Below are positions 1-64,000 of a DNA stretch of 64,000 nucleotides, one piece after another; position 1 is the first letter of the stretch, and the number at the start of each line of letters is the position of its first letter. Source of the stretch: Eledone cirrhosa. Taxonomy: Eukaryota. The translations under genes were made by a program, and so were the position numbers. The notes beneath the pieces were generated by a model that saw only the letters and a list, made by a program, of their open reading frames with translations, was not told where the DNA came from and did not search any database. Location: assembly GCA_964016885.1 (NCBI GenBank), contig OZ024766.1:16368001-16432000 (forward strand), read 5' to 3'.

Positions 1-3000
1 TTCTTCCAATGTCAGTTGTCATACAGGTGTCCATGGCTGTCTTATTTAACTGGCTACTCCAGTGACTGCTCCTTCTAGTCTCTTCTTCCAATGTCAGTTG
101 TCATACAGGTGTCCATGGCTGTCTTATTTAACTGGCTACTCCAGTGACTGCTCCTTCTAGTCCCTTCTTCCAATGTCAGTTGTCATACAGGTGTCCATGG
201 CTGACTTATTTAACTGGCTACTCCAGTGACTGCTCCTTCTCGTCTCTCTTTCCAATATCGGTTGTCTTACAGGAGTCCATGGCTGTCTTATTTAACTGGC
301 TACTCCAGTGACTGCTCCTGCTAGTCTCTTCTTCCAATGTCAGCTGACATACAGGTGTCCATGGCTGTCTTATTTAACTGGCTACTCCAGTGATTTCCCC
401 CTCTAGTCTCTTCTTCCAATGTCAGTTGTCATACAGGAGTCCATGGCTGTCTTATTTAAGTGGCTACTCCAGTGACTGCTCCTTCTAGTCTCTTCATCCA
501 ACGTCAGTTGTCATACAGGAGTCCATGGCTGTCTTATTTAACTGGCTGCTCCATTGACTGCTCCTTCTAGTCCCTTCTTCCAATGTCAGTTGTCATACAG
601 GTGTCAATGGCTGTTATTTAACTGGCTACTCCAGTGACTGCTCCTTCTAGTCCCTTCTTCCAATGTCAGTTGTCATACAGGTGTCCAAAGCTGTCTTATT
701 TAACTGGCTACTCCAGTGACTGCCCCTTCTAGTCCCTTCTTCCAATGTCAGTTGTCATACAGGAGTCCATGGCTGTCTTATTTAACTGGCAACTCCAGTG
801 ACTGCCCCTTCTAGTCCCTTCTTCCAATGTCAGTTGTCATACAGGAGTCCATGGCTGTCTTATTTAACTGGCTACTCCAGTGACTGCCCCTTCTAGTCTC
901 ATCTTCCAATGTCAGTTGTCATACAGGTGTCCATGGCTGTCTTATTTAACTGGCTACTCCAGTGACTGCTCCTTCTAGTCTCTTCTTCCAATGTCAGTTG
1001 TCATACAGGTGTCCATGGCTGTCTTATTTAACTGGCTACTCCAGTGACTGCTCCTTCTAGTCCCTTCTTCCAATGTCAGTTGTCATACAGGTGTCCATGG
1101 CTGACTTATTTAACTGGCTACTCCAGTGACTGCTCCTTCTCGTCTCTCTTTCCAATATCGGTTGTCTTACAGGAGTCCATGGCTGTCTTATTTAACTGGC
1201 TACTCCTGTGACTGCTCCTGCTAGTCTCTTCTTCCAATGTCAGCTGACATACAGGTGTCCATGGCTGTCTTATTTAACTGGCTACTCCAGTGACTGCTCC
1301 CTCTAGTCCTTTCTTCCAATGTCAGTTGTCATACAGGAGTCCAAGACTGTCTTATTTAACTGGCTACTCCAGTGACTGCTCCTTCTAGTCCATTCTACCA
1401 ATGTCAGTTGTCATACAGGTGTCCATGGCTGTCTTATTTAACTGGCTACTCCAGTGACTGCTCCTTCTAGTCTCTTCTTCCAATATCAGTTGTCATACTG
1501 GAGTCCATGGCTGTCTTATTTAACTGGCCTACTCCAGTGACTGCTCCTTCTAGTCCCTTCTTCCAATGTTAGTTGTCATACAGGAGTCCATGGCCGTCTT
1601 ATTTAACTGGCTACTTCAGTGACTGCTCCTTCTAGTCCCTTCTTCCAATGTTAGTTGTCATACAGGAGTCCATGGCTGTCTTATTTAACTGGCTACTCCA
1701 GTGACTACTCCTTCTAGTCCCTTCTTCCAATGTTAGTTGTCATACAGGTGTCCATGGCTGTCTTATTTAGCTGGCTACTCCAGTGACTGCTGCTTCTAGT
1801 CTCTTCTTCCAATGTCAGTTGTCATACAGGTGTCCATGACTGTCTTATTTAACTGGCTACTCCAGTGACTGCTCCTTCTAGTCTCTTCTTCCAATGTCAG
1901 TTATCATACAGGTGTCCATGGCTGACTTATTTAACTGGCTACTCCAGTGATTGCCCCTTCTAGTCTCTTCTTCCAATGTCAGTTGTCATACAGGTGTCCA
2001 TGGCTGTCTTATTTAACTGGCTACTCAAGTGACTGCTCCTTCTAGTCCATTCTTCCAATGTCAGTTGTCATACAGGAGTCCATGGTTGTCTTATTTAACT
2101 GGCTACTCAAGTGACTGCTCCTTCTAGTCCATTCTTCCAATGTCAGTTGTCATACAGGTGTCCATGGCTGTCTTATTTAACTGGCTACTCCAGTGACTGC
2201 TCCTTCTAGTCTCTTCTTCCAATGTCAGTTATCATACAGGTGTCCATGGCTGACTTATTTAACTGGCTACTCCAGTGATTGCCCCTTCTAGTCTCTTCTT
2301 CCAATGTCAGTTGTCATACAGGTGTCCATGGCTGTCTTATTTAACTGGCTACTCAAGTGACTGCTTCTTCTAGTCCATTCTTCCAATGACAGTTGTCATA
2401 CAGGAGTCCATGGTTGTCTTATTTAACTGGCTACTCCAGTGACTGCTCCTTCTAGTCCATTCTTCCAATGTCAGTTGTCATACAGGTGTCCATGGCTGTC
2501 TTATTTAAGTGGCTACTCCAGTGACTGCTCCTTCTAGTCTCTTCTACCAATGTCAATTGTCATACAGGAGTCCATAACTGTCTTATTTAACTGGCTACTC
2601 CAGTGACTGCTCCTTCTAGTCTCTTCTTCCAATGTCAGTTGTCATACAGGTGTCCATGGCTGTCTTGTTTAACTGGCTACTCCAGTGACTGCTCCTTCTA
2701 GTCTCTTCTTCCAATGTCAGTTGTCATACAGGTGTCCATGGCTGTCTTATTTAACTGGCTACTCAAGTGACTGCTCCTTCTAGTCCATTCTTCCAATGTC
2801 AGTTGTCATACAGGAGTCCATGGTTGTCTTATTTAACTGGCTACTCAAGTGAGTGCTCCTTCTAGTCCATTCTTCCAATGTCAGTTGTCATACAGGTGTC
2901 CATGGCTGTCTTATTTAAGTGGCTACTCCAGTGACTGCTCCTTCTAGTCTCTTCTACCAATGTCAATTGTCATACAGGAGTCCATAACTGTCTTATTTAA

Positions 3001-63000: not shown

Positions 63001-64000
63001 TTATGGTTTCTTACCTGTATGGGTATATTTGTGTTTAGTTAAACTACTTAATTGAGAGAATGATTTACCACAGATATCACAGCGATATGGCTTCTCACCT
63101 GTATGGATACGTAAGTGTTTAGGTAAATAACTACTTTGAGAGAATGATTTACCACAGATATCACAGTGATGTGGCTTCTCTCCTGTATGTATACGTTTGT
63201 GAATAGTTAAATTACTACTAAAAGAGAATGATTTACCACAGATATCACAGCGATATGGCTTCTCACCTGTATGGGTACGTATGTGACGAGTTAATATACT
63301 ACTTAGAGAGAATGATTTACCACAGATATCACAGCGATATGGTTTTTCACCTGTATGTATACGCATGTGTGTAGTTAAGGTACTACTTTTATTGAATGAT
63401 ATACCACAGATATCACAGTGATATGGCTTCTCTCCTGTATGTATACGTTTGTGACTAGTTAAATTACTACTAAAAGAGAATGATTTACCACAGATATCAC
63501 AGTGATATGGCTTCTCTCCTGTATGTATACGCATGTGTGTAGTTAAATGACTACTTTTATTGAATGATTTACCACAGATATCACAGTGGTATGGCTTGTC
63601 TACTGTATGTATACGTTTGTGTCTAGTTAATTTACTATTAACAAAGAATGATTTACCACAGATATCACAGCGATATGGTTTCTCTCTTGTATGTATATGT
63701 TTGTGTGTAGTTAAATGACTACTTCGAGAGAATGATTTACCACAGATATCACAGTGGTATGGCTTGTCTCCTGTATGGGTACGTTTGTGGCTAGTTAAGG
63801 TACCACTTTCAGAGAATGATTTACCACAGATATCACAGCGATATGGCTTCTCTCCTGTATGTATATGTTTGTGTGTAGTTAAATGACTACTTCGAGAGAA
63901 TGATTTACCACAGATATCACAGTGATATGGTTTGTCACCTGTATGGGTACGTTTGTGGCTAGTTAAGTGACTACTTAGAGAGAATGATTTACCACAGATA
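63001..64000 (-). CDS. Poly-C2H2 zinc-finger protein, 5'-truncated by window edge (at least 11 fingers)
   Basis: Finger repeats continue upstream of the called ORF (63534) to the window end; ends [10 protein letters not shown]. Confidence 0.9.

Follow-up and report, generated by a model that had tools for sequence, protein, structure and literature searches.

A 64,000-nucleotide stretch of Eledone cirrhosa DNA (assembly GCA_964016885.1, contig OZ024766.1, positions 16,368,001 to 16,432,000; hereafter the window) contains four copies of one module, each built around a C2H2 zinc-finger (ZNF) gene. We consider it likely that these copies represent a young tandem segmental duplication of a KRAB-less C2H2 gene, which grew by unequal crossing-over, with the repeats of the module as passengers and the fingers reshuffled under probable diversifying selection. 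The copies have exchanged sequence in both their flanks and their fingers.

The four copies were recognized by self-BLAST, with the large arrays masked, and by direct reading of the sequence; Tandem Repeats Finder and open reading frames (ORFs) supplied the remaining repeat and gene calls. Copy 1 lies on the plus strand and copies 2–4 lie head-to-tail on the minus strand, with copy 1 inverted relative to them. Each block measures 10–18 kb and combines the ZNF gene with transposon remains and repeats, giving a clustered tandem organization of four C2H2 genes in 64 kb. An initial annotation of this DNA had proposed that one module was co-amplified together with its repeats, in a shared order of parts, with very similar unique flanks and with copy numbers that vary by component. 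All of this is borne out. The order of parts is recovered by both approaches, our recount gives the same numbers of 82-mers, 115-mers, fingers and fossil fingers, and the unique flanks differ between copies by 1.7–6.3% in most segment comparisons and by 0–0.8% in three. The same annotation spoke of the gene's own satellites and palindromes; these do sit in the module, but most of them are transposon remains, left by a Helitron, a short interspersed nuclear element (SINE) and an RTE-type long interspersed nuclear element (LINE). A search of Rfam gave 0 matches at the gathering threshold in 16200–64000.

That the copies are artefacts of assembly is extremely improbable. Masked self-BLAST and flank comparison reveal private insertions and other events in every copy, and these, together with flank divergence of 2–6%, indicate that the copies are not assembly duplicates. 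Their finger arrays also differ, the long 82-mer array of copy 1 has 99 unit types and no exact repeat longer than 631 bp, and module sequence is deep in public sequencing runs (which are possibly not independent of the assembly). The feature that would best fit an artefact lies in the 115-mer array of copy 3, where an exact 11-unit higher-order block occurs ∼2.8 times, with 2255 bp identical; this identity reflects either a very recent expansion or a consensus artefact.

The same Helitron/RTE-tail junction is found at both head-to-tail joins, 40323 and 58752, as expected if one founding duplication was multiplied by unequal crossing-over. In the series of events that we favour, the unit holds the gene, a piece of a dead Helitron, SINE ends, hairpins and an RTE tail. 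Its Helitron/RTE-tail join, which recurs unchanged, would go back to a single event that unequal crossing-over later multiplied, and copy 1 would owe its orientation to a separate inversion. Each internal tandem array changed length independently, by block duplications inside the array, and sequence passed between copies in flanks and fingers. Selection would favour new residues at helix positions −1, +3 and +6 while the zinc ligands were kept. Going by the literature, the proteins would be sequence-specific DNA binders, with targets that most likely include transposons.

A Helitron fragment lies at every module junction, and tandem arrays of truncated Helitrons are described in the part of PMC12628747 drawn on here. 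These observations could suggest that a Helitron captured the module and that rolling-circle replication then multiplied it. We regard this as very improbable and largely excluded, as the piece is internal (∼aa 1011–1298 of 1738), carries stops and frameshifts, and is oriented away from the gene. It is cut by the SINE at one end and by the RTE tail at the other, and the copies form a mosaic with uneven divergence. Reading the sequence revealed no Helitron termini around the cargo, although no dedicated terminus scan was made.

Exchange between copies and turnover of the fingers

The 3′ part of the module contains 23 informative sites, which fall into 8 topology runs (P = 0.0005). The last fingers group copy 2 with copy 3 (7 of 7 sites, 0.8% apart), and the next 1.3 kb groups copy 1 with copy 3 (8 of 11 sites). 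One segment shared by copies 2 and 3 has 3 differences in 478 sites (0.6%), compared to ∼3.5% nearby. The longest run of identity between copies 1 and 3 is also longer than expected (P = 0.009, uncorrected, for one of six pairs).

The finger arrays turn over fast, against a background of only ∼3% divergence in the flanks. Across the six copy pairs, in-register fingers (≤5 nt) number 7/18, 5/11, 5/11, 3/11, 7/11 and 2/11. The 59 fingers carry 42 distinct fingerprints, finger types reappear at differing positions from copy to copy, and many fingerprints are private to a copy (14/17, 8/14, 7/11 and 5/10). In copy 1, fingers 1–3 are repeated as fingers 4–6 (20166–20670) with 4, 1 and 0 nucleotide differences; this three-finger duplication is very recent. 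Linkage decays along the 84-bp finger unit (rho = −0.23, reached in 0 of 2000 permutations), although part of this decay may be linkage within codons.

Variation is concentrated at the residues expected to contact bases. Entropy at helix positions −1, +3 and +6 is 2.6–2.9 bits, and the zinc ligands are nearly fixed, with both cysteines and the first histidine invariant in 59 of 59 fingers and the last histidine present in 58. A tree-free count at contact residues gave P = 0.001. In a codon model with a shared synonymous rate, the ratio of nonsynonymous to synonymous rates (dN/dS) at contact codons was 2.35–5.7, with P ≤ 2e-5 in four of four fits; at non-contact codons it was 0.5 in three of the four fits and 1.05 in the helix-only fit. 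These data point to probable, though not firm, diversifying selection at base-contact residues, and the signal may predate these four copies. They agree with the earlier description of rapidly varying fingers, in that the fingers are reshuffled between copies and their base-contact positions are diversified.

Several results weigh against the account given above. A four-gamete test against distance along the finger was not significant (P = 0.11). When contact codons were given their own rate, contact dN/dS was 1.85, with P ∼0.1 in two of two fits, and recombination among fingers inflates dN/dS tests. The remaining points concern where the module broke. The switch from a topology grouping copies 1 with 4 and 2 with 3 to one grouping 1 with 3 and 2 with 4 falls in an interval of ∼850 bp, most of it fossil-finger array. 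The 49-mer array contains two different module ends, those of copies 2 and 3/4. Three of the four palindromes of 230 bp are damaged, by independent lesions, and LINE pieces lie at the palindrome and beside the hairpin. With some breakpoints sitting at repeats, the repeats may be more than passengers.

It could be proposed that the built-in repeats are active drivers, with satellites and palindromes breaking or misaligning and so setting the place and rate of cluster growth, much as in the beta-satellite model for human 19p12. We find this unlikely. The near-identical tract shared by copies 2 and 3 (∼41640–40930) starts and ends in unique DNA, and all three pairs of copies are equally far apart in the intron next to the 115-mer (3.2–3.3%), with no switch there, though with three copies this is a weak test. 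Changes in the arrays look local (an 11-unit block for the 115-mer and nested blocks for the 82-mer), and the 82-mer is a chance product of a dead Helitron. The repeats are mostly transposon fossils that were included in the first duplication, and ∼9 kb of 94–98% identical sequence is enough substrate for unequal exchange. We read the satellites as passengers in a segmental duplication, and the finger array and palindrome as locally unstable. The earlier claim of unequal exchange promoted by built-in repeats is thus upheld in one half, exchange between copies being evident in mosaic flanks and reshuffled fingers; the evidence stops short of making the repeats its drivers.

The predicted gene is simple. 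In the three complete frames, a 31-residue N-terminus is followed directly by fingers of the form CxxC-x12-HxxxH, joined by TGEKP linkers in one open frame, as in Krueppel-type proteins. KRAB, SCAN and BTB are absent from the 25 of 30 Pfam families listed for the ORFs. The 31 residues before finger 1, with an in-frame stop upstream, leave no room for a KRAB box, in line with the initial annotation, although a hidden upstream coding exon is possible. Upstream, the donor site is perfect in all three full copies (introns start at 17549, 37228 and 55717), one strong acceptor is conserved in all three (19692, 35363 and 44639), and a CpG peak occurs at 17001–17150. Together these features make a non-coding exon 1 plausible. 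In copy 2, 117 bp of the predicted 5′ untranslated region are tandemly duplicated (35108–35341).

Origins of the repeats

Tandem Repeats Finder gives 198.3, 17.8 and 16.9 units for the 82-mer arrays of copies 1, 2 and 3, the first of which runs off the window start; counts of anchor intervals are 199, 17 and 16, two of the 199 being partial. The unit matches Helitron residues ∼1146–1172, and collinearity with the Helitron continues to either side of the array. Alignments to two RepHel proteins, at 50–55%, reach the array edge, and Helitron homology past the array extends exactly to 40322 and 58751, the module junctions. The 82-mer is thus an 82-bp segment of the replication gene of a dead Helitron that has been amplified and, with homology flanking the array on either side, the array would have been born there before the module duplications. 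The same three variants are commonest in all three arrays, and units differ as much within as between arrays (3.9–5.6 of 82 nt). Only nested blocks were seen in the long array, with no regular higher-order period. Copy 2 lacks ∼240 bp of Helitron beside its 82-mer array (38505).

This origin resembles that of known transposon-derived satellites and Helitron/Helentron arrays (PMC12628747), in that a transposon segment has become an array, here of 17 to >198 units. In the portion of that study used here, Helitron arrays occur mainly in central regions of elements. The present array differs from those in having arisen, it seems, within RepHel coding sequence that was already dead, and in having spread by gene duplication. 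Our search of the literature on Helitron-born satellites returned no description of this unit.

The 115-mer has no relatives elsewhere in the 64-kb window. Copy 1 has 6 units, copy 2 has 4 anchors in a degraded array of ∼3 units, and copy 3 has 47 + 1, split by a Gypsy-type long terminal repeat (LTR) retrotransposon. That element matches a zinc knuckle, protease, reverse transcriptase and integrase, but its frames are broken and its 3′ LTR is shortened; its two LTRs are more different from each other than the module flanks are. In sequencing runs from two further organisms (X4 and X6, described below), the 115-mer bins are almost uncovered and the 82-mer bin has little cover, but missing cover proves nothing here. 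No loose contig ends fall at the 82-mer or 115-mer among the 24 listed of ∼4,190.

Other repeats also trace to transposons. The 77-mers come from the ends of a SINE, which is dispersed and has extreme depth in runs X1 and X2. The 49-mers occur as well in the 3′ tail of an RTE LINE inserted in copy 4, and belong to an RTE 3′ tail. The hairpin of ∼123 bp (z = −17.7) and the palindrome of 230 bp (z = −25.9) were matched by no shuffle (0 of 200 each). Both are near-perfect long inverted repeats beside TA runs, the form of a miniature inverted-repeat transposable element, and we take them to be putatively of that kind. The palindrome is in a different state in each copy, which suggests a fragile site.

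Fossil fingers number 12, 5, 5 and 7 in copies 1–4 (in copy 4 by six anchors, one covering two units). The first three are the same in all copies and only the fourth unit was amplified, 8, 1, 1 and 3 times, so that a dead finger has turned into a small variable tandem repeat. Finally, a 78-mer satellite is confined to the spacer between the inverted copies, as a small element and a 40-unit array 500 bp apart. The small element holds four units (25513–25826) and has ends resembling those of Helentrons. The window has four distinct repeats of 76–82 bp with separate origins: Helitron-born, SINE end, fossil finger and spacer 78-mer. The two 78-mer arrays, the Gypsy-type element and the RTE LINE of copy 4 do not figure in the initial annotation.

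Table 1. Positions of module parts and neighbouring elements in the window
Feature	Position	Strand	Remarks
Copy 1 module	to ∼25025	+	Ends in RTE 3′ tail
Copy 1 82-mer array	1–16250	−	198+ units, amplified inside Helitron RepHel coding sequence; off window edge
Copy 1 dead Helitron RepHel fragment	16254–16652	−	∼aa 1011–1172 of P0242, tblastn E 8e-35
Copy 1 SINE ends	16705–16934	−	Three, tandem, 77 bp
Copy 1 predicted promoter (CpG peak) and non-coding exon 1	17001–17548	+	Ends at GAG/GTAAGT donor; conserved core 17085–17550
Copy 1 115-mer array	17685–18361	+	6 units, AT-rich, intronic
Copy 1 ZNF coding sequence	20073–21770	+	565 aa, 19 fingers; predicted acceptor 19692
Copy 1 fossil fingers	21840–22770	+	12, frameshifted, after stop
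Copy 1 hairpin	23197–23319		123 bp, next to TA run
Copy 1 palindrome	23641–23792		∼60 bp of one arm gone
Copy 1 RTE 3′ tail	24540–25025	−	5.7 49-mers; module end
Four 78-mers in small spacer element	25513–25826		In spacer 25436–29434, outside module
Inverted 78-mer array	26351–29434		40 units; spacer between copies 1 and 2, outside module
Copy 2 module, whole	29866–40322	−	10.5 kb; RTE tail starts 29866
Copy 2 palindrome	31403–31944		One arm replaced by RTE piece 31403–31797
Copy 2 hairpin	32252–32374
Copy 2 ZNF coding sequence	33252–34865	−	537 aa, 18 fingers
Copy 2 115-mer remnants	∼36694–37092
Copy 2 SINE ends	37875–38290		Within copy 2
Copy 2 Helitron	38343–40322		Within copy 2
Copy 2 82-mer array	38506–39964	+	18 units, inside Helitron fragment
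Copy 3 module, whole	40323–58751	−	18.4 kb; same Helitron/RTE-tail junction at either end
Copy 3 palindrome	41701–41930		Whole, 230 bp
Copy 3 hairpin	42231–42353
Copy 3 ZNF coding sequence	43233–44258	−	341 aa, 11 fingers
Copy 3 115-mer array	45969–51373	−	47 units; one more at 55471–55584
Gypsy-type LTR retrotransposon	51374–55470	+	Copy 3 only; in 115-mer array, predicted intron
Copy 3 Helitron fragment	56625–58751	+	aa ∼1016–1298 of P0242; interrupted by 82-mer array
Copy 3 82-mer array	57009–58393		17 units, inside Helitron fragment
Copy 4 module, 3′ part only	58752–64000	−	RTE tail included; open at window end
Copy 4 palindrome	59558–59776		13-bp loss
Copy 4 RTE LINE insertion	60073–61846		5′-truncated, in TA run beside hairpin; tail with module-type 49-mers
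Copy 4 hairpin	61855–61977
Copy 4 ZNF coding sequence	63001–64000	−	11 fingers plus one cut by window end

Related systems and relatives beyond the window

Coleoid genomes carry expansions of ∼1,500–2,800 clustered C2H2 genes, according to the sections drawn on of PMC9068888, PMC9795677, PMC6279123, PMC12513265 and PMC12988792. The present locus resembles the clusters covered in parts of the first four of these, having multi-finger, effector-less C2H2 genes in tandem. As far as those parts go, the coleoid accounts give counts, clusters and expression, and differ from ours in not giving the anatomy of a duplication unit; a passage of PMC12513265 treats both the multiplication of cephalopod C2H2 genes and their binding targets as an open question. 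The window offers one such unit at base resolution, with a recurring junction, exchange between copies and the origins of the neighbouring repeats except the 115-mer. It also provides three intact paralogues, which share a predicted first exon. Albertin et al. in 2015 reportedly found a 70–90 bp tandem repeat enriched beside octopus C2H2 genes and drew a parallel to beta-satellite.

Closer in organization are the mouse KRAB zinc-finger protein (KZFP) clusters and MMSAT4. In the portion of PMC5363842 considered, flanks are conserved and the finger array is the least conserved segment, with tandem or block finger duplications, copies on both strands and degenerate finger units, all as seen here. 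The difference is that our gene is from an invertebrate and has no KRAB box, only the 31-residue N-terminus. The locus works like a young mammalian KZFP cluster, but it is not a KRAB-ZNF. In the human 19p12 ZNF cluster, variable blocks of beta-satellite reportedly interleave with ZNF genes as the cluster grows (Eichler et al. in 1998). The satellite here differs in being a local by-product of a Helitron fossil and not a pericentromeric family, and again KRAB is lacking. A literature search for an octopus ZNF module with satellites returned no description of the present unit; the octopus genome paper of 2015 and the 1998 study of Eichler et al. lay outside its coverage, so absence from print is not established. 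The window is most readily taken as a clean, likely instance of gene-cluster growth of a type already known and not as a new system, and it does not establish a new mechanism.

Zebrafish FiNZ-ZNFs and the metazoan ZNFs predicted to bind transposons (PMC10547256, in part) are likewise KRAB-free and recently duplicated, with variable contact residues. Here, in difference to FiNZ-ZNFs, a conserved N-terminal protein domain was not found. That study, in the sections used, includes octopus ZNFs without KRAB in its transposon-binding prediction. The idea of KRAB-free transposon targeting is thus already published for octopus, as a prediction, and the motif prediction recovers ∼5% of measured motifs (PMC10547256).

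A narrower proposal is that the proteins bind the module's own satellites and transposon remains, silencing or stabilizing their own cluster. According to passages of PMC10547256, transposons are predicted to carry an excess of octopus ZNF motifs, and KRAB-ZNFs have satellites as well as other ZNF genes among their stated targets; the diversified contact residues fit as well. Even so, we judge self-binding quite improbable. The satellites hardly differ between copies while the fingerprints are for the most part specific to one copy, a pattern that does not point to a single local target common to all, and an effector domain was not found in the ORF.

Parts of 34786–37900 are contained in 13 runs of nine studies, none of them recorded as RNA. 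Contigs from 4 of 16 listed runs were compared with 34786–38680: X1 and X2 from organism A (one sample, library not on record), and X4 and X6 from organisms B and C. In X1/X2, contigs of the module intron and flank have a depth of 356–634, compared to 6–11 for contigs that are 10–16% diverged. Depth is no copy number, but these values hint at tens of copies of the module. The exon-1 core (17085–17550 in copy 1, 37229–37690 in copy 2) averages 4,600–6,500 per contig at two positions, ∼10 times the depth of the module intron. Five to eight contigs of X1/X2 leave the window intron at 35439, ∼75 bp before the acceptor, and enter one common other sequence. Joints between exon 1 and exon 2 do not occur among the 15 listed of 1843, which does not count as evidence on splicing. 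These data suggest a larger family with a 5′ leader in common. The exon-1 depth could also arise from a dispersed repeat or from a library in which exons or open chromatin are enriched. It is conceivable, though we doubt it, that the module belongs to a large octopod system of finger shuffling, in which hundreds of KRAB-less ZNF genes share one conserved non-coding promoter/first exon and acceptor and exchange finger units under diversifying selection for transposon-reading specificities, with repeat-rich flanks keeping the cluster recombinogenic.

Stretches of 465 and 456 letters from organisms B and C match the exon-1 region at ∼99% identity. Its core has 9 variable columns of 463, versus 67 of 1300 in the intron (P = 0.003, with boundaries chosen after looking). 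Protein searches with the ZNFs returned generic zinc-finger proteins and clusters, and none of the three complete proteins had an exact match in the collection searched (0 of 3). The finger framework makes an octopod source likely. Among 240 stored multi-finger proteins ranked by identity of the finger framework to the window consensus, an Octopus sinensis protein comes first at 0.905; the window's own fingers score 0.88–0.90, two O. vulgaris proteins 0.80–0.81 and all others ≤0.78.

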